Origin: Candidatus Aenigmatarchaeota archaeon | GTDB lineage: Archaea > Aenigmatarchaeota > Aenigmatarchaeia > QMZP01 | NCBI GenBank assembly: GCA_043824495.1 | Contig: JBDRSV010000024.1 | Span: 96,001-160,000 of the forward strand | Direction: 5' to 3' | DNA length: 64,000 bases | In this document: piece by piece, positions 10,295-59,731 of the stretch | Layout of the letters: the number at the start of each line of letters is the position of its first letter | How positions within the stretch are numbered: the first letter of the stretch is position 1 | The notes under the pieces: model-generated | The model's database searches: none | What the model was told of the DNA's origin: nothing | What the model saw: the letters and a program-made list of their open reading frames with translations, nothing else | Program-made: the position numbers and the translations under genes

Positions 10295-10320
10295 TTATAT
10301 CCCTCTAATTAGACAATATA
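10295..10320. repeat. Block-end motif, copy 1 (block A)
   Basis: TTATATCCCTCTAATTAGACAATATA. Confidence 0.85.
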
Positions 10321-10322
10321 AA

Positions 10323-10353
10323 ACAATCAGGTGCCGAGTGCACACCTAATTGT
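10323..10353 (-). terminator. Terminal hairpin of block A
   Basis: Minus strand ACAATTAGGTG-loop-CACCTGATTGT followed by TTT. Confidence 0.6.
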
Positions 10354-10370
10354 CCTTGCCAATCCTCTTC

Positions 10371-11477
10371 TCATCTCAGCTTCAAAAACGCTATATGAGG
10401 TGCAGGCAGCCACTTGACTAACGATTCAGTCCAAGAGAAAGACCATTTCAGCTTCTTCTTCATCTCGTGAACCTTCATACATTTCACCGAGACTAGATTC
10501 CAGTTCAGGATGCCGAAAGCTGTGCCCAAGAGACCACCGACAAGCATAACGAAGCCCTGTCCTACAAGATCCATTCCGGCGGAGGAAACGAGAAATTTGT
10601 AAGCGAGAAATCCGCCCAAGACTCCGTCAACTGCACACAACACTCTCTGGAAACAGTGAACCATCTTGATGATGTTCCAGATAAACTGACCGATAAATGT
10701 GAGGACCACCGAGATGCACACCAAGACAACGAAAATGACGGTCAGTGCAGTGAGAATTGGGTACCAGACAGAAAGTAGAAGCAAACTGAAGAGAATGTAT
10801 CCCATCGCGTTGAGATACCCGAGTTTTATTTCTCGGCGGTTCTTCTCCTCAAGGAAATACCTCCTTCTTAACACACCGATGTCGTATTTTTGGTCCGTGT
10901 GTCTGCTTATTCCGAGAGCCTCCCCAATACTCTTATAGTTGTACAAAACGTCTTCCCCGCTAGCGTCTTTCTTATCGACCATCATGAAAGGATAGAAGAA
11001 CCTTCCGCGATCACGACTTCCAACAAAAGCGAGGAAAGAAAGAACGCCGGAAAAGATCACAACACAGGCACCAGAGAGCGCCAACAGAAGAATGCTGCTG
11101 AGAGCGAGTTGAAGGATGTTCAGTGTTTCAGCATCTGCGAAAAGACCGGAAAATATGTGATGTGCTGGCCACAAGCCGAGCACAAGACTCGGAAAAAGGA
11201 ACGGGTGTGGCTTCGAGCATAACCAGTCCTTGGCTTTTCCGTAGTTGTCTCTGATATAAAACGGCCAAGTTCCGATATCATCCAACATCTCTCCGAGCAT
11301 CACTTGGATCGCTTTGGCCACCTCACGGAGGTCGTAACCAAAATAACCAGCTGCTCCGCCGGCCAGGAAAGCAGCAACCCACATGTACAACTTGTCCGGC
11401 ATCAGCCACATGGCAGTTGCACAGAACACGATGCCTCCAATGAAGCATCCGATTCCGATCTTCATCCAATCTTTCAT
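10371..11477 (-). CDS. Multi-pass membrane hypothetical protein
   Basis: 368 aa, many TM segments, SD AGGAGA. Confidence 0.8.
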   Translation of the reverse strand: MKDWMKIGIGCFIGGIVFCATAMWLMPDKLYMWVAAFLAGGAAGYFGYDLREVAKAIQVMLGEMLDDIGTWPFYIRDNYGKAKDWLCSKPHPFLFPSLVLGLWPAHHIFSGLFADAETLNILQLALSSILLLALSGACVVIFSGVLSFLAFVGSRDRGRFFYPFMMVDKKDASGEDVLYNYKSIGEALGISRHTDQKYDIGVLRRRYFLEEKNRREIKLGYLNAMGYILFSLLLLSVWYPILTALTVIFVVLVCISVVLTFIGQFIWNIIKMVHCFQRVLCAVDGVLGGFLAYKFLVSSAGMDLVGQGFVMLVGGLLGTAFGILNWNLVSVKCMKVHEMKKKLKWSFSWTESLVKWLPAPHIAFLKLR

Positions 11478-11544
11478 GGCGAAAATCTCCTTCTCGTTGT
11501 ATTTCTTTGTTTATAGTTATCGTCCTAGAATTAATTCAAAACAA

Positions 11545-12051
11545 TCATATCTGCAAAGGTTCAAGCAGATACATCAGACTTCGGTCTCGTAATTCTGTCC
11601 TCTTATAAGGAGGGAGATCTATGAGACAAAGACTGGAAATACTCACGTGCATGGTTTGATACTTGGTTTCGTCTGCTTGGTACATTCCCGTAAAGATTAT
11701 ATTATTCAGGACAAACCCGGAAACTACTGTCCAGATCCAGAATGCCATCCATCCATCGTACAAGAAGACGCTGGCAATCGCTGAAATGATTGCACCCACT
11801 GCGAGAACACCTACCTCAAAGAGAAGCATCGTAAAGATATCTCCCACGGGGTCGTTTTTGTCCTCTTCCCACCAATCCTCCATGACGAGTTCGTGGATAA
11901 TCATGTCAATGAGATTCTGCCTGTTCTGCATTTTCTCGTGGTAGGCTATGAAACGAGTTGGTTGACGAATGTTGTGCCAGATGATCAATCCAATTGGCAC
12001 CCAGATGACTGCTGTAGTGACAAGCAGCCAGAGAACTACTCTAGTTTCCAT
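11545..12051 (-). CDS. Membrane hypothetical protein
   Basis: SD GGAGGGG before ATG 12051; three hydrophobic segments. Confidence 0.7.
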   Translation of the reverse strand: METRVVLWLLVTTAVIWVPIGLIIWHNIRQPTRFIAYHEKMQNRQNLIDMIIHELVMEDWWEEDKNDPVGDIFTMLLFEVGVLAVGAIISAIASVFLYDGWMAFWIWTVVSGFVLNNIIFTGMYQADETKYQTMHVSISSLCLIDLPPYKRTELRDRSLMYLLEPLQI

Positions 12052-12275
12052 GTCCCCTCCAGGATTGATTGTTAGAAAAAATACTAGTATAATCACTCTC
12101 GTTAATTGACATTTCTGTCTTTCGTTGTCGTAGAGTATTGATTCCTAAATTACAGATGATGACTTTACCTCGAACAAGAATCTTGTGCCAGGTGCTAAAA
12201 GTTGTCAGCGATGATAAATGTGGAACATGATGCATAGAATTTAACCTAAAATTTTATAAACCTATACAAAACCTT

Positions 12276-12300
12276 TTTATACCTCTTAATTGACAATATA
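12276..12300. repeat. Degenerate block-end motif, copy 2
   Basis: TTTATACCTCTTAATTGACAATATA; aligns with one gap. Confidence 0.45.
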
Positions 12301-12304
12301 TAGT

Positions 12305-12694
12305 ATGAAGAAAAAAGCAAAGAGGACCACAAAGAAAACAGTGAAAAAACCAGTCAAGAAAATAAAAATAGAAAAGAGAGTAACACCAAAACCAAAAAAA
12401 GAAGAGAAAATTAAATGTCCTTATTGTAAGAGTTCTAGAGTGGTTTGGAGAGGATATAGATACAACGAAAAGACTGACAAGCACTTAAGATTATGTAACA
12501 ACTGTAAGAGAAAGTTCACAAAAAGAGACGAGTTCTTCCGTATGAGATTCGGTGAAGAAGAGATAAAAAGAGCTGTGGAATTATACAAGAAAGGTTATTC
12601 TTCTGCAGAAGTAGTTCAGAACCTGAAAAGAAATCATGGAATAAAGGTTTCAAGATGGACTGTGATCTGTTGGCATAAGAGATACACTAAGTAA
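12305..12694 (+). pseudogene. N-terminal zinc-ribbon + HTH fragment of an IS6/IS1-like transposase, no DDE domain
   Basis: CPYC.S..V...G.R......LC..C.RKFT, then AVELY..G.S...V...L......VSRWTV..W; ends before any catalytic domain. Confidence 0.65.
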
Positions 12695-12713: not shown

Positions 12714-12736
12714 TTATATCCCTTTAAATGGACAAT
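12714..12736. repeat. Block-end motif, copy 3 (block B)
   Basis: TTATATCCCTTTAAATGGACAAT. Confidence 0.85.
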
Positions 12737-12741
12737 GCAAA

Positions 12742-12809: not shown

Positions 12810-14684
12810 TTACTTCAGAAGCGTCATCTTTTTGCTTTCCGTCAGGCTGGCCGTTTGCAACCGATAGAAGTACATACCGGACGCGACGGCCTTACCGTAG
12901 CGGTCGGTTCCGTCCCAGCTAACCTGATGTGTTCCTTCGGGCTGGGACCCGTTGACGAGAGTGGCAACGTTGCGGCCGAGGATATCAAAGACCTCTAGCT
13001 TTACGTCTCCTCCCTGAGTCAACTGATAGGAAATCACGGTTCCGGCGTTGAAGGGGTTCGGGTAGTTCTGGTTCAAGCTGAATGATGTAGGAACGGCTCC
13101 TGTTGTCTTGTACGCGATGTTCAGCGTACCTAATGGAATCCACCCAGCCGGAACTGTCCGGCTGTTGTTGATCTCGTCAGCTATCGTTTTGGCCAACTCG
13201 TGATCGCCGAATGGATCGTCGATCAAGTTGTCGCAGTATGTTACCGCCTGTGACACAGTCGCGCCGTCATCGCTAATCACAGCGGTTTGTGCCAGTTTGC
13301 CGCTAGCGACATTGAGTAGCAAAGCCATGAGTTGCTGTCTGGCTCGATCAATCATGTCAACGCTGCCCTTGAGGTTCAGCAACGTCTTCGCGACTTCGAG
13401 CTTGTCTTCACAAAGATCCGACACGGGTGGATCGTACACGACGACCTCGTTCACTGCGTTCGAGTTGAAGTGGCCCGCGATGAGGTCGAGATAGCTACAC
13501 AGAGTTGAAGCATCGATTTGCGCGCGGCCATTCCCACCAGTAGCGACGCCGACGTTGTGTTTCCAGAAGCCGATTGTTCGTTGTTCTCCAGCGTCTGACG
13601 GGCATCCCAATTCAAAGTCGATTTGGGCTGTGCCTTCACAATCGAGATCGACGGACTGTTCGCTCGGAAATGCCGTATACCCGAGGGGGCCAACAAATGA
13701 TACCATGTAGCTGGCCTCACCCGGGAGGTTCTCGAAATCGTAGTAACCGGCTTCATCAGTCACAGCCGATTCTACAAGTACACCGGTGGCATCGAAGACA
13801 TCAATCGTGATACCAAGAACAGAGCAGTCAGCACTCAGTGTGCCCTCAATTGCGGCGAAGCATTCTTCCTCTCCACCTCCGCATGCACACGTTCCATCTT
13901 CCACCTCAATGGCGGTGATGGTGTTGTCGTAGGCGTCCTTTGACCAGACGACGGTCAACGGCGCGAAGTTGATGACGTCGCATTCGAGATCCTCATCCCG
14001 ACCACCGATCGTCGCGAAGTCACTGAGATACACGCCCGTTGTCTTGTCAATGCGAACGATGTTGCCCAGACCATCGCGCCCGATGTAAAGGGTGTTCCCC
14101 GTCCCAACAATAACACCACTTATTCGATCCAGTGTATTGCCGGCCGCGTCGGTCGGATACAACGTTCCCAGATAGGCTCCCGAGCCCGCATCGAAGTGGT
14201 CAATGCCCGTTGATACATCATCGGAAACCCAGACACTGTTATCCGTCGCATCAAAGCCAATGCCGTCGATGAAACAGAAGCCCGGTGTTACCACAGAAAA
14301 CTGGAAAGTGGCTACGCCGGTGGTGGGATCGATGAGATACACGTTCGCCGGACATTCGTTGTCACTGCCTCCCCAGATCATGTTGCGCGTATTGTCCCAT
14401 GCAATAGCGCCGATCGAAACTGGTGTGCCATCCGGTTTGAAAATGGAAACGAAGCCGAGATCGGTGCCGAATTTGTCTATCGAGTAGAGAGTTGGGTCGA
14501 AAGAGTTGGTGTAGAAAATCACACCATCACATCCAACTGCAACACCGATACCGACACCAGACGAGCTTGGAACAGGAACTGTGACGTTCGTGATGACATC
14601 ACCGGGAGCTGCCATTGACGTAGCGGTGATAGCGGTGAAGAGGCAGAACACAACAAGCGCAGTGAAAGCTGTGAGACGCTTCAT
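12810..14684 (-). CDS. Secreted bacterial-type protein: beta-propeller-like domain, carboxypeptidase-regulatory-like domain, C-terminal T9SS type A / FlgD-Ig sorting domain
   Basis: Signal peptide; C-terminal FSLNQNYPNPFN..T.ISY.L...V.L.VFDILGR.V.TLV.G....G...V.WDG....G..VASG.YFYRL......KKM.LLK. Confidence 0.9.
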   Translation of the reverse strand: MKRLTAFTALVVFCLFTAITATSMAAPGDVITNVTVPVPSSSGVGIGVAVGCDGVIFYTNSFDPTLYSIDKFGTDLGFVSIFKPDGTPVSIGAIAWDNTRNMIWGGSDNECPANVYLIDPTTGVATFQFSVVTPGFCFIDGIGFDATDNSVWVSDDVSTGIDHFDAGSGAYLGTLYPTDAAGNTLDRISGVIVGTGNTLYIGRDGLGNIVRIDKTTGVYLSDFATIGGRDEDLECDVINFAPLTVVWSKDAYDNTITAIEVEDGTCACGGGEEECFAAIEGTLSADCSVLGITIDVFDATGVLVESAVTDEAGYYDFENLPGEASYMVSFVGPLGYTAFPSEQSVDLDCEGTAQIDFELGCPSDAGEQRTIGFWKHNVGVATGGNGRAQIDASTLCSYLDLIAGHFNSNAVNEVVVYDPPVSDLCEDKLEVAKTLLNLKGSVDMIDRARQQLMALLLNVASGKLAQTAVISDDGATVSQAVTYCDNLIDDPFGDHELAKTIADEINNSRTVPAGWIPLGTLNIAYKTTGAVPTSFSLNQNYPNPFNAGTVISYQLTQGGDVKLEVFDILGRNVATLVNGSQPEGTHQVSWDGTDRYGKAVASGMYFYRLQTASLTESKKMTLLK

Positions 14685-15228
14685 GGATTTTTATTCCTTA
14701 GGTTGTGAGGGAAATATGACCCTCCGGGTTTGTTTTTCGATTAGTTTCTGATTGTTTGTCGTTTACCACGTTTCCAAGTTAAGGTCCGCGAATCGCTATT
14801 TTCATTGGCATCCTCTCTTTGGGTTAATGTTGTCCGCACAAATTGCGGGATTAAAAGAAGGAAAGACACAAAAGATAGAGTATGTCTTATGTAGACTGAG
14901 AGTAAAATCATTCGAAGAATAAAGCTAATACTATTAAAACAAACATGCATGTTTGATGTGTTTCTTTTCATGTTTTTTGTGTTAGCCAATGTACCGTTTC
15001 TATGGTTAATTGGATTGATTGAGTTGCAATCAATACAAATTTAAATGATGTTCGAATGAGTAGCATGATTTAAATTGTATACAAAAATTGACGTTGATTC
15101 ATCGTCGTTTTTTTGTGTTTTGGTATTTTTTTTGATTCTAGCTTGTCGCTTTTGTCAAGTCTTTAACTCAAGTATATAGCTTACAGGTATTTAAATGTTT
15201 TCTAACACATTTTTTTTAATTTTCTTTC

Positions 15229-15250
15229 TTTTATCCCTTTAAATAGACAT
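15229..15250. repeat. Block-end motif, copy 4 (block C)
   Basis: TTTTATCCCTTTAAATAGACAT. Confidence 0.8.
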
Positions 15251-15257
15251 ATAAAAA

Positions 15258-15321
15258 GGCAAACGGGCGAAGATTTGGAGCCAAACTCTTCTTGATGTCT
15301 CACCTCCGCCCGTTAAATGCC
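15258..15321 (-). terminator. Terminal hairpin of block C
   Basis: GGCA-AACGGGCG...CGCCCGTT-TGCC; TTTTT follows on the minus strand. Confidence 0.65.
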
Positions 15322-15549
15322 GTTGTCCGGCCTATCAATTTACCCGCCGGTTAGGTGAGCACATGTGCTCGTGTCCCAGAGGCGCATGTTTTCATGCCCT
15401 CCTTTGCCGGGTTCTTACGCGAACGTGCTGCTTGACCGAGATAATGTAGCTGCCAGATTCCCCACAACCTTGTTATTGGTGGAACCGCGACAGCGGTCGG
15501 TCCAGTCCGTATGCATCGTAGCCTCACTTGGTGAAGGACTGCGAATCAA

Positions 15550-15579
15550 GAGACGGGGATTCAGAAGAATCCCCGTCTC
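15550..15579. terminator. Perfect 13-bp hairpin
   Basis: GAGACGGGGATTC-AGAA-GAATCCCCGTCTC. Confidence 0.55.
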
Positions 15580-16223
15580 ACGAGTTGACGGTTGGTACGA
15601 GATATATCAAAGGAAGTCTTTATGCCATTGGGTGCATTCCGAAACCTTTAGCCTCGTCCGTCTCCGAGGGATCCTATCAAAGGTTTCATAAAGGAAATTT
15701 CATGGACCTCGTTACGATAGGATCGGAGTGGCGTAAAGCCACGGCCAGAACCTCGAGGTCCCCCAGGATAAGATCACCGTTTGAATATGAGTCAGCGGTG
15801 AACGTAAGGGTGCTGGCGATTCTTCTTCGCATTCAAACCCTCCAGGGAACACTTCGTAATTTGTGTTGTCAGCGGCTGTTTACGAATCGGCGGTGATCGT
15901 TTCCACCACGGTACATGTCGGCGTGGTGACAAACGATGAAGAAGCGACTTCAAAACGCGCGCGGCCATTGCTCGGCGGCGGCGAATGAGCCCAGGCATTG
16001 ACGGCGGTCGCGGCGGTATTCATCCAGGAAGCGACCACTGGTGACCCGCGAAGGGTCGGTAATCGGTTCATAGAGCAAGCTCCATTTCTTCCGATAGGAA
16101 AATTCCAATCCACTTTACAAACTCTCGCCTAAACAGAAAGTATTGTCACATAACTTTCCGTCGCAAAAGAGAATGTGAAGAGGAAACAATTTCGTACACC
16201 TCGTCAAGAGATCGTCTCCATTT

Positions 16224-16589
16224 TCACCCTACATGGGCTAGGCGAGAGGATAGACCAGTTGCTGATAGAGATGTAGAGGGAACCGTTTTCATCCGAAGAT
16301 CTCTCCCGTCCCTCAGGGAGTAAGTTGCTCGTCCACCAGGTTCCCATACCAAGGGAGCTGGCAACTCTGCCATTCTCTCTATCCGACTCTCTGTTGTCAT
16401 CGCCACTACGGCAACAACTCTTAGCCTATCCGGCGTAGGATTATGAGAGTGTAGAGCGAATTCCTCGTTCCATGTTTGTTCTGTATCGCTGCCTGTTATG
16501 ATATCCAATCCTGAAAACGGGATTGGGTCAGCGGTATAAACAATACAGGAACCATATATGAGGTAGCAGAGTGTCATGATTCCCAGCAT
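16224..16589 (-). CDS. Hypothetical protein with hydrophobic N-terminus
   Basis: SD AAGGAG upstream of ATG 16589. Confidence 0.55.
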   Translation of the reverse strand: MLGIMTLCYLIYGSCIVYTADPIPFSGLDIITGSDTEQTWNEEFALHSHNPTPDRLRVVAVVAMTTESRIERMAELPAPLVWEPGGRATYSLRDGRDLRMKTVPSTSLSATGLSSRLAHVG

Positions 16590-19004
16590 GACAACTCCTT
16601 ACAAGGGCACATGGTTATATGGTAAATGCTCTCTCCGTCAACAAATCGTGCCCTCTAAGACATGTTTAGGAGAGAAAGGCGACAACTCATGAAGTGTTCT
16701 TCAGGTGGACCCGTCATCACTGTTATTGCGTTGACGGCCTTCTCCTTGACCCGGACTTAGACGTGTGGCTTTCGGTGTTTTCGCGGCGCGTTTCTGCTGT
16801 TTTGGACTACGCTTCTTGTTGCTCGGAAGCCCGTCTCGGGCACCACCGTGACACGTCATGAAAGACCTCGTTTGTGAGGAGTTCAGTTCAAGCTTGTGCT
16901 GGAACTGTTTGGAACGAGGAATTGTTACTCTTTACGGCGAGCGATTGTGTGTCATCGTAACTCCTTGACAATGGTTTCCACAAGCTCCAAAATAAAAAAG
17001 AGCTGTTGTTTTCAAATTCAGTTGGGAATCTCCTAGCCCGCCCCCAGAACTGACTAGAGGAGATCCCCAACTTTTGTACAGCGCACCCCGTGCATTGTTT
17101 TCAGGGTGGAGGGGCCCGGCGGTCAACTGAGCCCCTCACTGGACGAATCGGTCACAGATAACATGTTACGCATTACCGACTCGAAATCTATGCCACGGCA
17201 GTAGATGGAAGTGGTCGCATCTACCGCCGGGCTTCACGACGTTGTGCATTTTGTCGCCTTCAGCCTTACACAACGCCGTTATTTCCCCACCCACAGGGAA
17301 TTTAATATCGCGGGGCCTCACTCAGGAGACCCCGCTTCCGTTGGGTTTACTACCGAATTGTTCGGTAGCGTTCTTCCACGACAGACATACGCACATGCGC
17401 ACGTCTTCATTTCTTTGAGGACCTACTCATCTCCGATTTGAGTAGGTCCTCGGCTCCCCACAACCCCCCGATCAGCACCGGGAATTTTTTTGAGGGGAAA
17501 TCTGAGCAGATATCTCAGACTCCCCTCCCGTCAGGTCTACCGACCAGCACTTCCGGTTGGACGCCGGAAATTCTTTATTAGAAGGGGTTTCCCCTCTCCA
17601 AGAAACCCCTTCCTCTTCGGCGTAGCGCGTCTCACGCGCTTTAGTGCATCGATCCCCACCGATCAGGTAAAACCCTTGGATGGTTCTCTCCCCGAACCCC
17701 CACTGAAATATTTTGGAACCCCTCATAGATCCCCGTAATCTCCGAGAGGTTCCGACAGCAGCACCATACAAATGGGACTACCGTGACAATCAAAAATACC
17801 GGAATCCACCGCGTCAGAAGAGGATTCCGGTATTCTACATCGCTGGTTGTGTTGAGAGCTTACCCCTTACTGGTCTTAACGAGTATGTTACGTCGGACTT
17901 CCTTTCACCAAATATACGGGTCACTACAGAATACCCGATCGATCCGCTTTGTTGTCTTAATCTCACCAGCGGATAGTGACGCGGTTACAGCCAGCGATTT
18001 CGCCTTTATACAACAGGCGTCTCCAAACCAAAATGGAAATTGGAGTTGTTGCTTCCACACTTCCGGATTTCCCCCTCCGGTAAACTCTAAGGTACTGATA
18101 GGTGACCGCTCGTGTTTCTTGTGTTCGCAATTGCCGATTGCATCAAGCTCTTCGTAGATCTAGATCTGGAAGTAATTAGCAAACGATCACAATAAACAGA
18201 CAACTGGGAGAAGTCCATTTCTACCAGTACCTGGATTTTCTAACCCTCGGGAGGTGTGTACAAGCCTAAGCAGAGTTTGTCCTGTTGAATTGGCCCCGAG
18301 GGTAAGTGGCCTTCCGGAAGAGAATTGGTGAGGTCCTGTAACAGAACTCTATCTCATTCCGGGGTAAAGCTCAAGGCACAGCCAGAAGGAGACGTATTAC
18401 CTTGAGAAGTTGGTCTCCCGAGTGAAGAAATTCGAGATGTCCCATCGATGAAGGACATCTCTTCTCCACTCGGGCTCATTCGTCAGCCTGGAAGGAGAAG
18501 TGCAAGAGTTTTCGCGCAATTACTCTCTCTCCTCCCGGGAAATTTATGACCTCCTGGTCCGAAACTTGTGCCGCGGTAAACCAGAAGGCGTAACTGCTAG
18601 GCTATGTGACGGCCACAGCAGTAGGGATCGAATCCAATACACGAAAGACAGCTAAGACTAACTCTGTCTCGTGTGGTTTACGAGTAAAATTCAGAAATCG
18701 ATAGTCTTCGGCCTCTTCGAGGGAAACTGCTTAAGCGCTTAATTGCAGCGCGTTATGTTTCCTGGTAAGTGACCTGTTCTCTAGGATGTACCGAAGGCTA
18801 ACTTAGTTAGTCTCGGGAAATTCGCGTGTGATTGGTAGAAATGAAACATGAAATGTCCTTATATATAAATGTAATTTAATTACTTAAATAGGTTGATGGA
18901 TAGCTTTAAAAAGGTACTATTAAAATTATTTTTTTGTGAAGGGATCGATATACCAAGTGCTTCCAAAAATAAAGAGTAGAAAAAAATAAGAGTGAAAAAA
19001 GCAA

Positions 19005-21047
19005 TTAACCAATGAATTCAACCTTTTCAAAACTGCCGTTTTCTTCAAATTTGTCTAATGTTGATACGAAAATTATTACTTTTTTCTTGTCTTCTTTACA
19101 GATTCTAGCTGCTTGTTGTATTACCATGTTCTTGATTCTGTCTGAAGCACATATGAAATGATTGCTTTGTTTCAAGTCCTGATAAATTAATTCTCTATCA
19201 TCTGTGTCTTCAACCATTATAGTTAATTCTTTTCCATCGTTCTGTAAATATATTCTGTTACCTTCTTGTTCACTCTTCCATCCGACTTCATTAAAGGTCT
19301 GCATGATACCTGTTAAGTTCAATTCTTTTTTCTGTGTTGAGTTACCAAATTTATTAGTGAAAACTTTCTCTCCTATATTTGTAAGAAAGTAATAACATAA
19401 TCTATTCTTCTTAACTTTAGCATCAGCTGAATCAACTAATCCGTTATAAGTTAAGTTCTCAACCTTTTTCTTGAAAGTTGCTCCTGACATTTTTACATTT
19501 GTGTATATCTGAGATGTGTAAGCAGCACTACCATTACCAATGGTTTTCATCATAGCCCACTCTTGTTCTCCTAAATCCTCAATTGGAAGAGAGTTTATGA
19601 ATTCTTCTTCCTTTACTGGAGGAGGTGAGTAGCTATCTTCTTTAGCTATTCTGTCTTTCATGTGCTCTCTGATATCATCATCTACAATAGAGTTCTTAAC
19701 CAGTTTAGCCTTGTCGAATTTTACAAGGAATGGTTCTGGGAAATTCATAGAGTGTCTCAAAAGCATGAAACCGTGACCTACTGGCAGTCTTCTTAGATAC
19801 TTACCTTCTTCTCTAGAATCAAGACCAAGCATGTTTGAAGCGTCTTGAATATCTGAAGTATGTTTTGTATCCAAACCTAGATTCATGTATATATGAGTAG
19901 AAGTATTACCAATTGCTGGATATGAAACTAAAGATGGATGCTGATCTATGTATATCATTCCTAATCCTAATTCTCTAATTTCTCTAAATATTAATTCTAC
20001 AACGGTTTCTGATCCTAATTTGGCAGATTTTTCTCTGTTAAGAACATGATGAGCTTCTTCCATCACTATACATCCTATGACTTCTTCTTTTCCGCCTTCT
20101 ACGAGTAACCAATCTCTTATCCACTGTAGAATTATTTCTATGATAAAGCTCTTATCATTAACATCAAGAGCATCTAATTCTAGAATTGTTACCTTTCCTT
20201 TCTTGAAGAAATCAGATGGTTTTATACCTTCTACACAGTCGAATATATGACCTGTGTCTTTGAAGCATAATGACTCTAATGGTCTTTCAGCTGTTGCTAA
20301 CCAGTTTCTTTCTCTTGTTGGCAGCTTACCTTCTGCATATTCTGCTAAGTAATCTTTAAGGTCAAACAGTGTTGGATTTTTCTTTTCCTTGAAAACTCCA
20401 TCTAAAGCTTTCAAGATTACGTGTCTTCCACCACCGAGTAACCAGTAAGAATGATCGAATATTGAAGAGAACTCTTTCATCCACTGTGTTTGACTAATTC
20501 CTTTAGGACCTTTCAGTGGATTGAATTTGAAAGGAGCTACGCCTCTTCCGATTGTGTAAATATCTATTTTGTCTTTAATTTTAGTTGATAGTAAATCTTT
20601 ATAATTTCTCTTAGAGAAATCAAATATCAAAACAGGAATATCCTTTTCTGCTAATTCTTCAATTAAGTTATATGAAATATTTGTTTTACCATAACCAGAT
20701 GAACCAAATATTCCTATATGTGTAAGTAAGTTTTTCTCTTCTAGCATGATTGGATATAAACCCTTTCTTCCGTATAAAACATCACCTAATCTAATTGTTC
20801 CTTTAGCTGCTGCTTCTTGGCTAGGAGGTTCCATTAGTACTGTATCTCTTAGATCTTCATCAGCAGAAACTGCGGCTTTTATAACATCAAGTAGTTCGAA
20901 GATTCTTTGTCTTACATCTTCGTTTCCAACTAAGTAAGCTTTACTTAATCTCAAAGCTTTGTCTTTACCCAAGATTGGAGTAAGCTTCTTAATTTCATCT
21001 GCAATTAGTTTTTCTTGAATATTAATCATTTGTACCACCCAAATCAT
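19005..21047 (-). CDS. HerA/DUF87-like P-loop ATPase with C-terminal winged-helix region
   Basis: Walker A GIFGSSGYGKT, Walker B IVMEEAHH, RE.RELG.G...IDQHPS. Confidence 0.88.
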   Translation of the reverse strand: MIWVVQMINIQEKLIADEIKKLTPILGKDKALRLSKAYLVGNEDVRQRIFELLDVIKAAVSADEDLRDTVLMEPPSQEAAAKGTIRLGDVLYGRKGLYPIMLEEKNLLTHIGIFGSSGYGKTNISYNLIEELAEKDIPVLIFDFSKRNYKDLLSTKIKDKIDIYTIGRGVAPFKFNPLKGPKGISQTQWMKEFSSIFDHSYWLLGGGRHVILKALDGVFKEKKNPTLFDLKDYLAEYAEGKLPTRERNWLATAERPLESLCFKDTGHIFDCVEGIKPSDFFKKGKVTILELDALDVNDKSFIIEIILQWIRDWLLVEGGKEEVIGCIVMEEAHHVLNREKSAKLGSETVVELIFREIRELGLGMIYIDQHPSLVSYPAIGNTSTHIYMNLGLDTKHTSDIQDASNMLGLDSREEGKYLRRLPVGHGFMLLRHSMNFPEPFLVKFDKAKLVKNSIVDDDIREHMKDRIAKEDSYSPPPVKEEEFINSLPIEDLGEQEWAMMKTIGNGSAAYTSQIYTNVKMSGATFKKKVENLTYNGLVDSADAKVKKNRLCYYFLTNIGEKVFTNKFGNSTQKKELNLTGIMQTFNEVGWKSEQEGNRIYLQNDGKELTIMVEDTDDRELIYQDLKQSNHFICASDRIKNMVIQQAARICKEDKKKVIIFVSTLDKFEENGSFEKVEFIG

Positions 21048-21570
21048 TAAAGATCTTTAAGATCTTATTTTCTGTTTGTAGTTGTTCCAGGAGCTCTCTT
21101 AGCTCTGTTTTTAATTCTAATCCATCTCTCCAAAAAAGAATATTTTCTTGTCTTTTTTCTTTTCTGAGAATAGAAACATCAAGTTTGAAATTTCTCTTTT
21201 CATCGATGTCTGTGATATGATTCATCATATCGTCTTTTTCTTCGATGTCTTCTTCAATTTCTTTTAAGAATGTTTTGTGGAGAACTTCTCTTTCTTTCAT
21301 AGTGTTTTCAATTTCACTAACTCTTATTTGCAAGAATTCTACTTTATCGAATAAGCTTCCAATAACTAGAGGATCATCTCTTTTTAGAGCAGTGAGTTTA
21401 CTTTCTTCAAATCTTGGCATTGATCTTTTCTTAATAATTTGAACTTCTCTAACTTCGGGTTCATCTAGATCAATCTCATCATGTCTAATTAAAGACTCAC
21501 GTCTTCTCTTTTTTGTAATGTCTTCATACTCGTCAAGAGTTTTATAATAGGGTTCCATTAATCTGTCCAT
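21022..21570 (-). CDS. Coiled-coil hypothetical protein
   Basis: Glu/Lys/Leu heptad-rich; overlaps the ATPase start. Confidence 0.8.
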   Translation of the reverse strand: MDRLMEPYYKTLDEYEDITKKRRRESLIRHDEIDLDEPEVREVQIIKKRSMPRFEESKLTALKRDDPLVIGSLFDKVEFLQIRVSEIENTMKEREVLHKTFLKEIEEDIEEKDDMMNHITDIDEKRNFKLDVSILRKEKRQENILFWRDGLELKTELRELLEQLQTENKILKIFNDLGGTND

Positions 21571-22795: not shown

Positions 22796-22924
22796 TCCCA
22801 CTGAGTTCATCCAATTCATCGGGTGGACCCAGATGAGATTATTGTCTAAAGGCTAAATCAGCAGGCCTTGAATTGTTGGTAGGGATCATTGGAAGATTCC
22901 CAAAAACATGGCAAGGAGGGCAAC

Positions 22925-23077
22925 ATGTCGCAGGGAACCAAAAACACCAAAGACACAGGAACAAGAGCGTTTCTGGTTATCGACGGAACTACAGGAGACC
23001 TCATTCCTGTGAAAGCATCGTCTGGACGAAAAGCTGAGCAAATCGCCGGCAGCGTAACCAGACAATCCCGCAAATAA
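22925..23077 (+). CDS. Small hypothetical protein (50 aa)
   Basis: SD AAGGAGGG before ATG 22925. Confidence 0.5.
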   Translation: MSQGTKNTKDTGTRAFLVIDGTTGDLIPVKASSGRKAEQIAGSVTRQSRK

Positions 23078-23290: not shown

Positions 23291-23295
23291 GTGTC

Positions 23296-52020: not shown

Positions 52021-52046
52021 CTATATCCCTTTAAATAGACAATATA
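52021..52046. repeat. Block-end motif, copy 6 (block E)
   Basis: CTATATCCCTTTAAATAGACAATATA. Confidence 0.85.
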
Positions 52047-52048
52047 AA

Positions 52049-52085
52049 GGGGAAAGTGTGATTGGTGGTCACACTTTTTCTCCCC
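52049..52085 (-). terminator. Terminal hairpin of block E
   Basis: GGGGA-AAGTGTGA...TCACACTT-TCCCC; TTT follows on the minus strand. Confidence 0.65.
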
Positions 52086-52118
52086 TTGTAGCACCCGGAG
52101 AAGCTGCTCGCGTTGCAG

Positions 52119-52549
52119 TTAATCGTCGAGGTCGAGATCCTGAATGGGACCGTCTGCGGGATCGATCGCCTTGTCGGTACATGTGAACTCATTGCCGTGA
52201 CCCTCACCGAAGTTGGCTCGGGCCGTGATCTGGAACGTGCCGTCTGTTGACGCCGCGGGGACAATTGTGGTAGGCGAAGTAACCGCGAAGAACATTGTGT
52301 CCTTGGACCCACTGGCAGGAGCAGGTTTGAACTCGATCGTTGTGTCGCTGTCGCCATAGTCGAAGCGGGCAGCGGGAGCCAATGAGCGAGTTAAACTGCT
52401 ACTGCGAAAGGCTTCAATGCCTCCGGACAAACCGAGGTCGATAGCCTTGTCCCTGGCGATCTTCTCGATTGTTGTGCTTCTTACGTCTACTTTTACATCA
52501 TTCAGAACTGTGTCCCCGAACTTCAGGTTGATTTTAATGCTGTCGGCCA
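52119..52549 (-). CDS. Hypothetical protein
   Basis: SD GGAGGGG before GTG 52549. Confidence 0.65.
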
Positions 52550-52591
52550 CGATACCCCTCCGTTTCTGCGTGATCAATGTCACGTCTGTGA

Positions 52592-53137
52592 TTAGTCCTT
52601 CTCAGCCTTCTGAAGTTTCAGACAAATGGTCTCACCGTCAGTTGCGTGGTCGTAGTCAAATGTAGTCGCAAATTTGGCGCTCCCGATCTTGATTCGAGCG
52701 TGAATCTGACACTTCTTGGGAATACTCGGGAGAGTTATCTCCCCACGAATGATCGTAGAGCCGCCTTCAGTGTCCTCATCATCTATCTTGAAGTAGACGA
52801 TGGTCCCATTCGGAGTTGCGATACAGTCATCGCCGTGGCATACTTCGGCTTTGACGGTGACTGAAGCACGAACAAAGTCGAGATCGAAATCGGTGTTCCC
52901 ATCAGCCGTGTCATAATCCAGACGTGCTTCGTACAACTCGCCGTCGATTGTTACGAATGCTTCAAGCGATCCAGCCGCGAGGACGCCCATTAAGACGATG
53001 ATACCGTTTTCTTTCACGGTGGCACGATTTTCTTCGCTTGCGTCGCCTGCGTCATTACCAAATAATACTGAGATGCCTTTTGGTATTAGCTCAGTATCTT
53101 CGTAATAGGCGGTCAGTTGAAGTGTCGTTTTATCCAT
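52592..53137 (-). CDS. Hypothetical protein, tandem beta-sandwich-like domains
   Basis: SD GGAGGGCAAAGGA; two similar halves. Confidence 0.7.
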   Translation of the reverse strand: MDKTTLQLTAYYEDTELIPKGISVLFGNDAGDASEENRATVKENGIIVLMGVLAAGSLEAFVTIDGELYEARLDYDTADGNTDFDLDFVRASVTVKAEVCHGDDCIATPNGTIVYFKIDDEDTEGGSTIIRGEITLPSIPKKCQIHARIKIGSAKFATTFDYDHATDGETICLKLQKAEKD

Positions 53138-53182
53138 TTATCCTTTGCCCTCCTTGTATGGTTTGCCTGTTCCATATAGGCG

Positions 53183-54085
53183 TTATAAACTGACTGTCAC
53201 AAGAATGTGGTGTGACTTGTCCCCATATTCACTTTGGCGCATTGGCAAGAGCATTACTCTACCAATCTTGCCTCCTATATAGTACCAGGAGGATTTAACA
53301 CCGAACTCGTATCCGCCTCCGAGAAGAAGGAGGTATTTCCCATGCTGCCAGGCAAACGCCTTGTCAGCACCGATTCCAACATTTCCGGATTTCGTATCAC
53401 CGAAGGTCTCAAAGCCCAGGCCGTGGAAGAGGCCAACAGAACTAGAGAAGACCCATTTACCCTTTCTGAAGTTCTGGTAGGCATCGAATCGTGTAGCTTG
53501 AATTCTTGCAGATCTCAGAAAACCGAGAACTGATGATTCTTTGTGATTAAGTTTCCATTCAAACCTGGTTCCAAAGTCCAAGTCCCACATGTTCTGGGAT
53601 GGTTCGGTGATCCATATGGGACCGCCAGGAATGTACTCGGTTCCGGGAGCAATGAAATTGACAGTTCTCGTTCTCACCCAGATTCTTCGAGCCCCGATAG
53701 CAAGTCGAAATTTTCCAGGAAGAACTCCGAGAGCAAACCGAATATTCGTCGTTGTGGCGATTTTTTGGAAGTCGGTCTGTGCAGGTGGTACGCCTTCTGA
53801 TTGAGTGTAACCACCGAGACCCATTAGAGTAAAGCTAGTCTCGGTACCCAGTGGGCGGAGAAGGAACGGGAGCTTGTACGAGGCTCCAGATTCTATTACC
53901 CAGAAATCTGTCCGCGAACCATACATCCCGTCTGTTGGGGTCTTGAGAATGTAGGTGAAGACTGACGAGTTGTCGTAAATTGGTGGTGGTTTGGCATCCA
54001 CTTTCACCGGAGACACTACCACCACAAACAGTGTCACTGCTGCGATGATGTTACGCATCGAGACCCTCGCGATAACTTTATGCAT
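53183..54085 (-). CDS. Secreted protein resembling an outer-membrane beta-barrel
   Basis: Signal peptide; alternating Gly/aromatic strands; ends in a strand-like HHILVTVSL. Confidence 0.6.
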   Translation of the reverse strand: MHKVIARVSMRNIIAAVTLFVVVVSPVKVDAKPPPIYDNSSVFTYILKTPTDGMYGSRTDFWVIESGASYKLPFLLRPLGTETSFTLMGLGGYTQSEGVPPAQTDFQKIATTTNIRFALGVLPGKFRLAIGARRIWVRTRTVNFIAPGTEYIPGGPIWITEPSQNMWDLDFGTRFEWKLNHKESSVLGFLRSARIQATRFDAYQNFRKGKWVFSSSVGLFHGLGFETFGDTKSGNVGIGADKAFAWQHGKYLLLLGGGYEFGVKSSWYYIGGKIGRVMLLPMRQSEYGDKSHHILVTVSL

Positions 54086-54318
54086 CGAAACCCCCTTGGC
54101 TGAACGCCGTGACCGAGTCTATAGAAATCTCTCTACTTCTATCTCAACACGAAAGACGATTTACTTGACTTTCGTGATTAAGTGGTTACCTAAATACAAA
54201 TACCAGCACTGAGATGAGATTAATCTTCTCAGATAAATGCTGGGTTAAAGGTGTGTTTAGTTGAAAAACATGAATATAGAGGATTCTTGATAATAAACTT
54301 TTAAAAAGTAGGTGAACC

Positions 54319-56797: not shown

Positions 56798-56804
56798 GTG
56801 AATT

Positions 56805-58355
56805 ATGGGATTAATAATAGATGACTTTAGGGATTGGGCAATGGAGTCAGGACCTTTGACAGGCACAGCTGTATGTGGATCTCCTTTCGAAATGCAGATA
56901 ATTTTAGATTATACAGGACTTAGGGGAAGCGGTTCTAACATATATTATTCTCTAATATACCAAGCACCTAAATGGAACTTCAAGGTCAAAAAAGTAGACG
57001 AATGGATAGAAGTTACACCAGCTTTTGCTGATTATTATAATATAACTATTGCACAAAAGCAAAAGATAGAGGGTGCAATTAAATCTGGGTTAGCTTCTGC
57101 TTCCCAATCTGTTGCTGATTATGAACTACTTGCTCACGATGCAAGAAGATATAGAGAAATAATAGATTATTTCAAGGAGGGTCAAAAAGACGATCATGTT
57201 CTACGTTCTCTGTTCCTTGACAGAGTGGATGTGTATACAGGAGATAATTACTCTCTTGTTACAATGGCTAAGAGGTGGCCAACAATAATAACTGATTTCA
57301 TAAGAATGGAGAGTGCTTGGACGAATCCAGACATAATTCCGGAGGATAAGCAAGTTAAGCTCATAATGAATAATCTTGATGTTTCTCAAGCTGAAGCTAC
57401 TATTCTGAAAACAAAGAATCAGCTGTTCAGAAAGTGGAAAGTAATGTTTTTCCCTGTTGTTAAGGATAGATATGCAAGAATACAGGCCATGGTTGAAGCA
57501 AGAAGAAAATCAATTGACGAATACAAGAACTGGCTTAAACCGTATGTGGCTAAATACAGAATGATAAGAGAGAAAACCGAATTAAATCCAAAAGAATATG
57601 TTTCAAATGCTTATATGACTCCTGGTTTTGGTCAATCCCAAGCATCTACAGGAGTAAGATTATGGTTCTTTAAAGTGTTCCCTCCAGAACAAATGGGTAA
57701 ATCAGAATCAGTTAGAAGTGACGGAAAATTCATGATAAATCCTTATGATGACTTAGTCAAAGAGTGGAAAAAGAAAATAGAAGAAAAGTATGGCGTTGAA
57801 ATAACAGATGACGAAGTAAAAAAACTCCTCAAAGAAAAATCATCAGGAGACAATCCTGAAATGGATCCTGGTGAGATATATTATATTCTAATAGACCTGA
57901 ATATAGAACTTGCTCTAACCAAAACACCTCCTCCACAAGGGTCAGAACAAGACAATTTGATGTTTAAACCTGTGAGAGCATGGGTAATGTCTCAGAATGT
58001 TTTGTTAATTCATTTACTTGAAATATATGCAATAGAGAAAAGTTTTGATAAATATGTAAATGAGATGGTTGGAGCTCCTAGTATAGAAAAAAATATTCTA
58101 GAAAATATAGAAAAGGAGTTTGAGGAGCCTAAAACAGAGAAAATGACAGGATTGAAAAACGCTGGAAGAAAGATCAATAGAGCTGGAAGAATATTTAGGA
58201 AGGGTGGAGAAAAGATATTTTACGTGTTTGTAAAGAAAGGTCCATATGAAACCGTTTTCGAGGAAAGAGTATCAAAGATGTATATGCGTGGTGCTGGTGG
58301 ACAGTATGGTAGGGTAATAGGCTTCATACAACAAAAAATGGGCGTTGGTAATTAG
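56805..58355 (+). CDS. Conserved hypothetical protein, helical
   Basis: 516-aa ORF, host composition. Confidence 0.85.
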   Translation: MGLIIDDFRDWAMESGPLTGTAVCGSPFEMQIILDYTGLRGSGSNIYYSLIYQAPKWNFKVKKVDEWIEVTPAFADYYNITIAQKQKIEGAIKSGLASASQSVADYELLAHDARRYREIIDYFKEGQKDDHVLRSLFLDRVDVYTGDNYSLVTMAKRWPTIITDFIRMESAWTNPDIIPEDKQVKLIMNNLDVSQAEATILKTKNQLFRKWKVMFFPVVKDRYARIQAMVEARRKSIDEYKNWLKPYVAKYRMIREKTELNPKEYVSNAYMTPGFGQSQASTGVRLWFFKVFPPEQMGKSESVRSDGKFMINPYDDLVKEWKKKIEEKYGVEITDDEVKKLLKEKSSGDNPEMDPGEIYYILIDLNIELALTKTPPPQGSEQDNLMFKPVRAWVMSQNVLLIHLLEIYAIEKSFDKYVNEMVGAPSIEKNILENIEKEFEEPKTEKMTGLKNAGRKINRAGRIFRKGGEKIFYVFVKKGPYETVFEERVSKMYMRGAGGQYGRVIGFIQQKMGVGN

Positions 58356-58454
58356 TTTAGAATTTTCTTTTCGTAGTGGTTTATATAAACTGAAATCAAT
58401 ATACATTCAGCTATTGGTATAAACTTTATAAACTAATAATTTGTTTATCAAACA

Positions 58455-59708
58455 GTGATTTGGATGGCTAAAAATAAAAAAATAACTAAGAGAGCAGTTA
58501 AGAAATCGGTTAAGAAAACAGCTGAAAAGCCAGCTAAGACTGCCAAATCAAAATCTAAACCTACTCCTAAGACCAAGAAACTAACACCAGAACAAGAAGC
58601 AAAAGAGCTTGATGATGAAAAGCTAGAAAGAATAGATCTTCTAAAGAAATTCACAAAGGATGTTTTGAAAGAGTATGGTCAGCTAATTAGAGCTATAGTA
58701 TTATTTGGTTCTACTGCTAGAGGCGGGTTCAAGAAGCACTCTGATATTGATATTTTTGTTATAGTTGATGATACAAGAGAGAAAATCACTCCTATGCTTA
58801 GAGATAAACTAGAAGACGATTTAGACAAAATAGCTAAGAGCTGCTCAAAGAAAATGTCTGTGCAGCAACCTTACATGCTCACTGAATTCTGGAGACTTGT
58901 GAGAGAAGGTCATCCAATTGTTTTCAATTTCATAAGAGAAGGAGTTCCCGTATTTGACAGAGACATGTTTTTACCTATCAAGAGATTACTTCAAATAGGA
59001 GAGATAAAGCCGTCTCAAGAAGCTGTTGAGAAATTTATTGAGAGAGGACCTAAGAGAATCAAAAGAGTAGAAAACGCAAAGATGTATATGGTAGTTGAAG
59101 ACTGCTATTATGCTATGCTTGAAAGCGCTCAGGCTGTTCTTATGTTTATGGGTAAAATACCTCCAAGACCTACTGATGCTCCAGAGAGTTTGAGAAAAGC
59201 TCTTGTAAAAATGAAATTAATTGATGAGGAAAGTGTCAAATTCCTTGAAGATATCATAGATCTAAGAAAAAAGGTTGAACACAAAGAGGTTAATTCTGTT
59301 TCTGGTGCAGATCTTGATGTATGGATAGAGAAAACAAAGAAATTCGTAAAAAAGATGCAAGACACAATAATGGAAATAGAGTTGATAAAGAGAGAGAATA
59401 TGGTTGAGAAATCATACACAATTATGAATGAGACTGCTATCACTCTTCTAAAATCAATAGAAAAAGCACCTAAAAAAGAAGATCCAATATCAAAAGCATT
59501 TGATACATATTTAGTAAAACCTGGTGTAGTTTCTGATAAATATTTGAGTGTATTAAATGAGCTTGAAGAGATGCATAGAATTGTGCATGAAGGAAAGATT
59601 ACAACAATACCAAAGCAGGATATTCTTGTGAACAGAGAGTATGTTAGAAAGTTCATAACGGAAGCGGGCAAGATTCTACGAAAGAAGAACAAAGAGCCTG
59701 ATGTTTAA
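58455..59708 (+). CDS. Minimal nucleotidyltransferase + HEPN fusion
   Basis: LFGS.ARG....SDID; CYYAM...AQA.L; RKKVEH (Rx4H). Confidence 0.88.
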   Translation: MIWMAKNKKITKRAVKKSVKKTAEKPAKTAKSKSKPTPKTKKLTPEQEAKELDDEKLERIDLLKKFTKDVLKEYGQLIRAIVLFGSTARGGFKKHSDIDIFVIVDDTREKITPMLRDKLEDDLDKIAKSCSKKMSVQQPYMLTEFWRLVREGHPIVFNFIREGVPVFDRDMFLPIKRLLQIGEIKPSQEAVEKFIERGPKRIKRVENAKMYMVVEDCYYAMLESAQAVLMFMGKIPPRPTDAPESLRKALVKMKLIDEESVKFLEDIIDLRKKVEHKEVNSVSGADLDVWIEKTKKFVKKMQDTIMEIELIKRENMVEKSYTIMNETAITLLKSIEKAPKKEDPISKAFDTYLVKPGVVSDKYLSVLNELEEMHRIVHEGKITTIPKQDILVNREYVRKFITEAGKILRKKNKEPDV

Positions 59709-59717
59709 ACATAGTGC

Positions 59718-59731
59718 TTAAATAGACAATA
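59718..59731. repeat. Half copy of the block-end motif
   Basis: TTAAATAGACAATA, identical to the cargo-side half of copy 6. Confidence 0.55.

Follow-up and report, generated by a model that had tools for sequence, protein, structure and literature searches.

The window, as we call the whole 64,000-nt stretch of DNA that was analyzed, covers positions 96,001-160,000 (forward strand) of contig JBDRSV010000024.1 of Candidatus Aenigmatarchaeota archaeon (GCA_043824495.1), a metagenome-assembled genome (MAG) of 1.01 Mb which is 80% complete; positions without a contig prefix count from the first letter of the window. Five GC-richer gene blocks, here named cassettes A to E, were found in it, each ending at a solo copy of a short repeat that is designated IR (inverted repeat) for reasons given below. 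The IR of cassette A (10295..10321, + strand; inner end at 10295, outer tip at about 10319) is followed by AAA and by a variable hairpin (10324..10353), which separates the IR tip from the last gene's stop codon and is terminator-like when read on the - strand. The cargo (10371..12096, - strand) is made up of two ORFs without a Pfam family: one of 368 aa at 10371-11477, and one of 183 aa at 11545-12096, with a TM segment at the N-terminus and a paralogue in the C11 cassette. The 5' module (12103..12262, - strand) contains a conserved leader beginning TCATGTTCCACA and a TATA-like promoter at about 12248-12262. Next to cassette A is the gene for a 129-aa protein with a zinc ribbon and HTH, designated ZnR (12305..12694, + strand), which is without a DDE domain. 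A degenerate IR-like box, the presumed promoter/operator (12276..12302, + strand), lies directly upstream of its start codon, and the full IR of cassette B (12714..12740, + strand) lies 20 nt past its stop codon.

Cassette B (12810..15228, - strand) encodes a 624-aa surface protein (12810-14684) and an 82-aa ORF (14741-14989), followed by a promoter/leader region. The 624-aa protein has a T9SS-type C-terminal sorting domain and shares 50-62% identity with T9SS proteins of Zixibacteria, and a bacterial contig carries its best full-length relative; by these similarities, this cargo gene is of Zixibacteria-like origin. Beyond the IR of cassette C (15229..15255, + strand, with one inserted base), the block itself (15256..18890, - strand, GC 0.50) has a leader-like 5' end at about 18640-18850. 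Its ORFs do not exceed 142 aa in any frame, its codon periodicity is weak, and it is probably decayed cargo. A conserved neighbour, a DUF87/HerA-like ATPase (680 aa) with a 182-aa partner (19005..21570, - strand), is located between this block and cassette D (22150..31337, + strand), which is about 9 kb long with a GC of about 0.49. All of its ORFs (22433-31277) are on the + strand; one of them encodes a 663-aa beta-propeller protein, and another contains an FHA domain. The upstream region of the cassette is unlike the class-1 leader, and its IR is at 31338..31364 (- strand). Cassette E (52048..54318, - strand) has its IR at 52021..52047 (+ strand), a hairpin at 52049-52086, ORFs at 52119-54085 and, at 54086-54310, a leader and promoter that have diverged. 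Finally, the outer half of an IR occurs alone, without cargo, at 59718..59735 (+ strand) and may be a decayed copy.

The original prediction, made from the window alone, had named five copies of the motif, and a pattern search recovered all of them (10295, 12714, 15229 and 52021 on the + strand, 31342 on the - strand), against 0.01 expected from shuffles. The copies at 15229 and 52021 show 3 and 1 mismatches to the pattern, respectively, the former score being due to the inserted base. The degenerate copy at 12276 also proved real (TATACCTCTTAATTGACAATAT, directly before the ATG of ORF 12305-12694), as did the half copy at 59718; there, 14 nt within AT-rich surroundings (TTAAATAGACAATA) match the motif's outer half. 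Scanning of the whole genome with up to 2 mismatches gave 18 copies in 1.01 Mb, all coinciding with a GC break: AT-rich DNA lies on one side of each copy and a GC-richer operon of 1-12 kb on the other, and the GC-richer side (0.38-0.55) falls on the same side of the motif in 18/18 cases (sign test p = 8e-6). The claimed GC step was borne out, with a backbone of about 0.31-0.37 and blocks of 0.43-0.54. Besides, 17 of the 23 GC-rich blocks of the genome bear an inward-pointing motif at one end and not at the other. Gene direction is toward the motif in all 18 blocks, which agrees with the proposed location at the 3' end of their genes. No inverted partner came up when the distal ends, and the 250 nt next to the inner side of the motif, were scanned with a PWM; all IRs are solo, and the blocks are one-ended with respect to the motif, as had been suggested.

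The architecture is the same across cassettes. On the 3' side, host DNA is followed by the IR, AAA, the variable terminator-like hairpin and the cargo genes; on the 5' side, the 1-12 co-directional cargo genes are followed by a common leader of about 150 nt, an archaeal TATA promoter and host DNA. The order of IR tip, hairpin and stop codon is kept at all copies, and AAA/TTT beside the hairpin is conserved at cassette IRs. The blocks had been described as unrelated, and this is correct only in part: most of them share the promoter and leader, so they are not wholly unrelated at the distal end, and for a few cargo genes a paralogue occurs in another block.

Comparison with insertion sequences showed that the motif is the terminal inverted repeat of an IS6/IS26-family element, present here as solo copies. 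It shares 24 of 27 bases with the IRR of IS_L089, the matching IS6-family elements being about 1 kb long, and in blastn positions 993-1020 of IS_L089 aligned with the cassette A copy (C24:106292-106319) at 92.9% identity over 28 nt. When three IS6 elements of about 1 kb were compared with the genome by blastn (IS boundaries were set by comparison of three insertion contexts), matches were confined to the motif copies, via the IS ends, and the common 5' leader had no IS counterpart. The alignment with IS6 ends extends about 25 nt inward from the tip (TATTGTC...AAAGGGATA). A tip G together with cTGTt and caaa motifs is the end signature of this family (PMC7986276); TTGTC and A-rich motifs are found in the cassette IRs, and the tip G is replaced by T. 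This T occurs in 18/18 cassette copies of the genome (as an A after GACAATAY in motif orientation), whereas ISs have G, and the change suggests that cassette ends are perhaps no longer cleavable. As originally stated, the motif does not fit integron attC or pdif sites, nor apparently those of rolling-circle capture. It does match a known consensus, that of the IS6/IS26 terminal inverted repeat.

The inner end of each IR faces host DNA and its outer tip faces the cargo, so that in transposase chemistry the cargo would correspond to “target” DNA and not to the transposon interior. The DDE_Tnp_IS240 transposase (PF13610) was not found in this 80% complete genome and was present in only 2 of 41 relatives. 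The original prediction of a site-specific mechanism that installs the blocks was not supported, as no catalytic enzyme was found and the repeat polarity is unlike simple block transposition. The identity of the motif itself is settled.

ZnR is the DNA-binding N-terminal domain of an IS6-family transposase, encoded here on its own. It shares 45% identity with residues 6-102 of P0242, one such transposase, and matches 39 full-length DDE_Tnp_IS240 transposases with E values down to 6e-32; its model is similar to the N-termini of archaeal IS6 transposases. Since both the motif and an encoded DNA-binding domain match IS6, the system derives from a transposon family already known and is not a wholly unknown kind of site. 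This ORF had not been connected with the motif in the original prediction. Among the 41 genomes compared, 13 had the motif, 13 had ZnR, 12 had both and 27 had neither; these genomes are related to one another and are not independent samples, so that a p-value for the co-occurrence overstates the evidence. A single ZnR copy was found in this genome. Across genera the protein is single-copy and syntenic, with 49-63% identity, and IR boxes flank it in most of 15 loci (locus GC 0.38-0.63). For example, an IR-like box is located 9-17 nt upstream of the ZnR ATG in this genome and three relatives, and in four relatives the distance from its TATA element to the ATG is 21-22 nt, the spacing of archaeal leaderless promoters, while a full IR lies past the stop codon. 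ZnR is near the DUF87 operon in nine loci, convergent with it across a variable spacer of 0.3-8.6 kb in eight, and in many relatives the ATPase closes the variable spacer of ZnR and cassettes. We infer that ZnR binds the IRs.

Empty sites in a congener, together with the bacterial-type cargo, showed that the blocks are inserted foreign DNA, as had been claimed. G001, an independently assembled congeneric genome, was compared at syntenic sites and contained two clean empty sites, one for cassette E (the whole unit is absent) and one for C5:118.5-122.6k. At two other loci, orthologous between the two genomes, the cargo is unrelated, and its replacement breaks exactly at the IR tip. Cassettes are therefore gained, lost and swapped between close relatives. 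The empty sites lack the IR, which is missing together with the cargo, and this argues against a resident IR as the target of singleton insertions. Three cassettes lie between direct repeats of host DNA (about 20, 23 and 322 bp), and 8-bp duplications did not show up at a word size of at least 8, with distal boundaries that are not base-precise. Most units are singletons with one repeat, and the repeats at 10295, 12276, 12714 and 15229 form an array in direct orientation.

These features are best read as an IS6-derived, one-ended cassette system. IS6 elements form cointegrates, translocatable units and direct-repeat arrays and carry outward promoters in their ends (Varani et al. 2021, PMC7986276). 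Most likely, cassettes would be built and spread by IS6-type cointegrate formation or translocatable-unit capture beside an IS end, with a full-length transposase, rare in the population, acting in trans; the tandem array beside ZnR would be a product of IR-by-IR recombination. In present-day genomes, the IR-ZnR pair is probably domesticated: the pair may function as a boundary (a T-tract terminator combined with a protein roadblock, an outward promoter, or both), and ZnR may act as an InsA-like repressor. We give this joint account, in which IS6-type chemistry spread the cassettes and the pair is now probably domesticated, about an even chance of being correct. Because IS6 cointegration or translocatable-unit insertion is expected to leave two IS copies, the solo IRs count against this mechanism.

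Regulatory domestication without any role of IS6 chemistry in capture is possible but clearly less probable. Here, solo IRs would be cis elements of a ZnR regulon (a putative outward, antisense promoter or a terminator/roadblock closing the 3' side of accessory operons), and cassettes would move by homologous or illegitimate recombination in the course of exchange among Aenigmarchaeota. The conservation of ZnR across loci of different GC content and the leaderless-type spacing of its IR box are consistent with this possibility; the altered tip base and the conserved AAA/TTT by the hairpin look selected and not decayed, most genomes are without transposase, and the 23- and 322-bp host direct repeats fit Campbell-type integration by homology. 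However, it leaves unexplained why one leader and one IR precisely bracket unrelated bacterial operons, why GC-rich DNA adjoins all 18 IRs of the genome and why the IR tip is the precise breakpoint of cargo swaps; the antisense promoter assumed for the 3' end of each cassette is hypothetical. IS1 InsA-type and other truncated transposase repressors are stand-alone DNA-binding domains whose adjoining IR overlaps their own promoter. ZnR has the same arrangement but differs in that it is single-copy, syntenic and kept across genera without a catalytic partner, which points to host domestication rather than to an active IS.

A somewhat more doubtful proposal is an integron-like capture platform in DPANN, in which solo IS6 ends recombine IR by IR under a trans-acting transposase and ZnR control. 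Recombination at the IRs would then be conservative, as for IS26 translocatable units; ZnR would provide specificity or control, the ZnR-IR locus by the DUF87 ATPase would be the home array, and captured bacterial operons would be given a standard archaeal promoter and leader for expression. It is improbable that the IRs are chance relics of full IS6 copies which inserted beside terminators of foreign operons and independently decayed to one IR. A target preference for terminators would give the junction of hairpin and IR tip, and the half copy at 59718 is evidence that decay happens; however, it would require that 18 of 18 copies shrank to one and the same stretch of 27 nt, sharing one altered tip, with the IS body and the second IR lost each time; the empty sites lack IR and cargo alike, and the cassette architecture is conserved across 13 genomes.

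We consider an integron-like or other site-specific system, with a tyrosine recombinase acting on the hairpin and motif as an attC/attI analogue, very improbable. Integron gene cassettes, including those of archaea (Ghaly et al. 2022, PMC9668308), resemble the present ones in having accessory, partly cross-domain genes, a variable hairpin by a short conserved core, a patchy distribution and an array adjoining a conserved platform gene. Moreover, the genome has seven tyrosine recombinase genes, one of which directly adjoins a cassette, with its 3' end duplicated on the far side. However, none is in the window, as originally noted, and the family of the adjoining gene does not co-vary with the motif, being present in 9 motif-less genomes and absent from 6 motif-bearing ones. 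The motif has no GTTRRRY attC core on either strand and no evident R/L boxes, no IntI is encoded in the window, and the cassettes are multi-gene units of up to about 12 genes, mostly scattered singletons, with their own promoter and leader; the motif is directly identified as an IS6 end by alignment. For rolling-circle capture (IS91/ISCR, Helitron-like), the enzyme family covered was Y1_Tnp, whose single gene in the genome is on contig C23, away from every cassette. Modules of the pdif/Xer type were also considered and rejected, as the motif is an unpaired IS6 end and not two arms with a 6-bp spacer. The sharp GC steps and the MAG source might suggest chimeric joins, at a short common repeat, of AT-rich archaeal DNA to that of GC-rich organisms, but the chance of such an assembly or binning artefact is negligible, as the backbone on both sides of the blocks is syntenic with the independently assembled congener, 13 genomes, and also separate NCBI, JGI and Logan contigs, show the IR-hairpin-cargo and ZnR layouts, and at usual k assemblers would not be misled by a repeat of just 27 bp.

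The closest known system is the IS6/IS26 family, which shares with the cassettes the end sequence, the zinc-finger/HTH domain (N-terminal in the matching transposases), a direct-orientation array with cargo between repeats (here at the ZnR locus) and an outward-facing promoter element in the end (putative in the cassettes), and which is known to accumulate foreign genes (PMC7986276). In contrast to this family, a 27-nt solo end with a tip T occurs here, without an IS body, second IR or DDE transposase in the genome and without visible 8-bp duplications. At their other end the cassettes have a conserved promoter and leader that is absent from the IS6 family; the common 5' leader is left unexplained by the IS6 capture model. 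Mobile insertion cassettes (MICs) and MITE-bounded gene cassettes are likewise transposase-less cargo units at IS ends, mobilized in trans if at all, but MICs have two inverted IRs with inner sides to the cargo, whereas here one IR turns its outer tip to the cargo.

The wider question is how ultra-small DPANN archaea acquire genes from other organisms, including bacteria, and bring them to expression. In this 1-Mb genome, imported operons account for about 5% of the sequence and have one common 5' expression module and one 3' boundary, which is now tied to a named transposon family and a candidate binding protein. An anonymous motif is thereby turned into testable biochemistry, namely binding of ZnR to the IR and activity of IS6 transposase on T-tip ends. 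It is probable that a transposase DNA-binding domain and its putative binding site were domesticated together. The finding would extend IS26-style gene accumulation, as on antibiotic-resistance plasmids, to archaeal genome evolution, and an IS6-derived capture platform, if true, would have an integron-like role in DPANN archaea.

The original prediction placed a motif of about 23 bp where AT-rich sequence meets GC-richer blocks, at the 3' end of the genes of each block, and these observations were borne out. A degenerate pattern returned exactly five copies in the window, at 10295, 12714, 15229 and 52021 on the forward strand and at 31342 on the reverse strand, with a chance expectation of 0.01 copies in shuffled sequence. 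The window backbone has a GC content of approximately 0.31–0.37 and the blocks 0.43–0.54. In the whole assembly of Candidatus Aenigmatarchaeota archaeon, designated G000 (1.01 Mb in 29 contigs, 80% complete, with archaeal-type housekeeping genes), we found 18 copies with at most two mismatches; the window spans C24:96001–160000 of this assembly. All 18 have the GC-richer DNA on the same flank (sign test, p = 8e-6), ORFs were directed toward the motif in 18 of 18 blocks, and 17 of the 23 GC-rich blocks of this genome had it at one end only. The final stop codon is separated from the motif by a short hairpin whose sequence varies. Scans for tRNA genes and Rfam families found none in the 64-kb window; structural RNA genes therefore do not account for the GC-rich blocks. 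A role of the motif as a promoter for the AT-rich neighbour was rejected because neighbouring genes face both ways, and a DGR target was rejected because no VR/TR-like sequence common to the blocks was found.

ZnR, the product of ORF 12305–12694, is a small protein with a zinc ribbon and a three-helix HTH. Its longer relatives comprised 39 full-length proteins (264–376 aa) with a DDE_Tnp_IS240 domain (E-values down to 6e-32), some of which, one of them from an Aenigmatarchaeota MAG, were annotated as IS6 family transposase. ZnR was 45% identical to residues 6–102 of one full-length transposase, and a structure search with the ZnR model led to the N-termini of archaeal IS6 transposases; in a PDB fold search the HTH matched only weakly, the hits being terminase and DNA-binding domains of Tc/mariner-type transposases. 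The ends of the insertion sequences (IS, about 1.0 kb) were set by comparing several insertion contexts on small transposase-bearing contigs. Read from the tip inward, their terminal inverted repeats (IRs) are GATATTGTCTAATTATAGGGATATAAT and the window copy at 10295 is TATATTGTCTAATTAGAGGGATATAAC, which matches at 24 of 27 positions. The ISs matched G000 by blastn at motif copies only, via IS ends only, and by tblastx at ZnR only. Ends of the IS6 family carry a tip G, cTGTt, an A-rich motif and outward promoter elements (PMC7986276). The motif agrees with this signature except for the tip base, which is T in 18 of 18 G000 cassette copies and G in the ISs, the next three bases being conserved. 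Judged from sequence, the end alignment and the ZnR/transposase match identify the motif as a terminal inverted repeat of the IS6 family, with ZnR as the cognate DNA-binding domain. The view that the motif fits no known consensus site thus had to be abandoned, as by direct alignment it belongs to the IRs of the IS6/IS26 family.

The two components also occur together. The degenerate copy at 12276 immediately precedes the ZnR ATG, and a full motif follows the ZnR stop codon in most genomes. In relatives, ZnR homologues are single-copy with a motif-like box upstream; the TATA element of this box lies 21–22 nt from the ATG in four of them, which is the spacing of archaeal leaderless promoters, and the flanking-box layout is kept even at a locus of 63% GC. 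Among 41 related genomes, 13 had the motif (relaxed pattern) and 13 had ZnR; 12 had both and 27 had neither (Fisher p = 2e-8 overall and 0.004 in the DUF87-neighbour subset, both uncorrected for relatedness). We infer that ZnR binds the IR. Convergent with ZnR is a conserved operon (window 19005–21570, reverse strand) coding for a DUF87/HerA-like ATPase and a partner of about 180–230 aa, for which a role in DNA handling is our guess. It was present in 18 of the 41 relatives, among them 12 of the 13 with ZnR. ZnR was located near this operon in G000, G004, G008, G010, G012, G016 and G017 and on metagenomic contigs L077, L079 and L081, and in eight of these loci (the exceptions being G017 and L079) the two were convergent and 0.3 to 8.6 kb apart. 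In the window, cassettes B and C occupy this gap; the array at 10295, 12276, 12714 and 15229 is entirely in direct orientation, and most other units are singletons. In G016 (contig L097 = G016:C45, 4982–5340), a hairpin and a degenerate IR end the DUF87 operon itself, suggesting that the operon may be the primordial 'cargo' next to the IS6-derived module.

At their distal ends, three blocks have a 120–140-nt sequence in common (82–88% identity), and profile searches revealed weaker copies of this leader, uniform in orientation, at the corresponding end of additional blocks. In gene direction, a unit starts with an AT-rich TATA-like box, followed after about 25 nt by the box TCATGYTCCACA, a leader of about 150 nt, a GGAGG-type RBS and the first gene, whose product often has a signal or TM segment at its N-terminus. 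This layout indicates that the units are complete transcription units composed of promoter, leader, 1–12 genes, hairpin and motif. The leader showed no similarity to IS sequence. A short box, ACGAAAGAC / GTCTTTCG, is repeated in both orientations at window 21680–21745 and 22360–22385 and in cassette leaders, and was also seen in cassette upstream regions that have no class-1 (shared-form) leader.

We found that cassettes were gained, lost and swapped between G000 and the congeneric genome G001, where clean empty sites for two units showed that the blocks are insertions. For example, 2.3 kb at the cassette E site (about 52007 to 54318, including motif, cargo, leader and promoter) is missing from G001, the empty site being a VanZ/convergent-gene junction at which the two host genes abut. 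Similarly, a 4-kb unit at C5:118.5–122.6k corresponds to a 137-bp intergenic spacer in G001. Two further orthologous loci are occupied in both genomes by unrelated cargo. At C5:113439, the flanking gene shows 89% protein identity, similarity between the two genomes starts exactly at the cargo-side edge of the motif, and tblastx of the cargo gave no match between them. At the second locus, next to the DUF87 operon, the class-1 leader of G001 is followed by a first gene unrelated to that of G000. By similarity, the cargo is partly bacterial: the C-terminal 56% of a 624-aa protein of cassette B matches Zixibacteria proteins named T9SS sorting-domain (50–62% identity), and its best full-length relative comes from a contig that also encodes UvrA and RuvB. 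For two cargo proteins, the ESM atlas offered nothing beyond sub-threshold bacterial leads. The cargo of cassette C (window 15256–18600, 3.4 kb, GC 0.50) has a longest ORF of at most 142 aa in any frame and weak 3-base periodicity, stop-codon reassignment under alternative genetic codes opened no long frame, and it is probably a decayed cassette. Elsewhere in the window, a myo-inositol-1-phosphate synthase gene (42090–44615, reverse strand) is split by an intein whose homing-endonuclease domain is of the LAGLIDADG type, and a 908-aa Eco57I/MmeI-like fused restriction-modification enzyme (34385–37111, reverse strand) lies near an IS4/IS5-type DDE_Tnp_1 transposase (39083–40093, forward strand) that has no relation to the motif.

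The best reading, which we hold at about even confidence, is an IS6-derived, one-ended cassette system. Several observations weigh against it. The IRs are solo, the distal ends being free of an inverted copy as initially described, and their polarity places the outer tip toward hairpin and cargo and the inner end toward host DNA. The tip base is altered, empty sites have no IR, no 8-bp duplications were seen at cassette ends, of which the distal ones are placed only approximately, and the leader is not explained by the model. A DDE_Tnp_IS240 domain was absent from G000 (80% complete) and present in only 2 of 41 relatives; full-length IS6-like genes in G017 and G012 had flanks without a clear motif-type IR pair. 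The main rival, possible though doubtful, is that the IR–ZnR pair was kept by regulatory domestication and all cassette movement was ordinary recombination. Direct repeats of host DNA surround three cassettes: about 20 bp at cassette E (a reading of the alignment), 23 bp at C5:65109 and 322 bp around C24:47400, and the latter two are compatible with Campbell-type integration by homology. The 322-bp repeat (93.5% identity) is the 3' end of a tyrosine recombinase gene (C24:46122–47345, outside the window) whose 407-aa product ends in a zinc ribbon. The gene directly adjoins a cassette, and its last 322 bp are duplicated beyond that cassette at C24:49252–49573, the layout that would be expected from single-crossover integration of a circle carrying that segment. 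Independent decay of full ISs is improbable; in G000 cassettes there was no partner IR within 250 nt of the IR inner side and no IS body. Still less credible is an integron-like tyrosine-recombinase system, as the phyletic pattern of the sole cassette-adjacent recombinase rules against it as the cassette integrase. The 1-Mb genome has seven Phage_integrase-family matches, two as adjacent pairs (C10:57.9–59.7k and C29:29.3–30.6k), one Y1 TnpA linked to no cassette, and no TnpB. Chimeric assembly is highly improbable because synteny extends on both sides of the blocks and the layout recurs both in separate contigs from NCBI, JGI and Logan and in 13 genomes that were assembled independently.

Among known systems, the IS6/IS26 family, with its arrays and translocatable units, is the nearest. 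Unlike complete IS6 elements, the units lack two IRs and a transposase; they differ from mobile insertion cassettes in lacking two IRs and from integron cassettes in lacking attC/IntI. We found no description of such one-ended solo-IR cassettes in the literature, and three features appear undescribed: cassettes that are one-ended, with a solo IR as cap whose outer tip points to the cargo; a conserved promoter-leader at the opposite end; and co-domestication of a transposase DNA-binding domain. In an IS6-derived cassette system, DNA would be captured beside an IS6 end via cointegrate or translocatable-unit chemistry, with rare full-length elements supplying the activity in trans, and the array next to ZnR would be built through IR-by-IR recombination. 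The present IR–ZnR pair would then persist in domesticated form, marking a boundary or serving regulation, and may act as a T-tract terminator plus roadblock and/or as an outward promoter repressed by ZnR.
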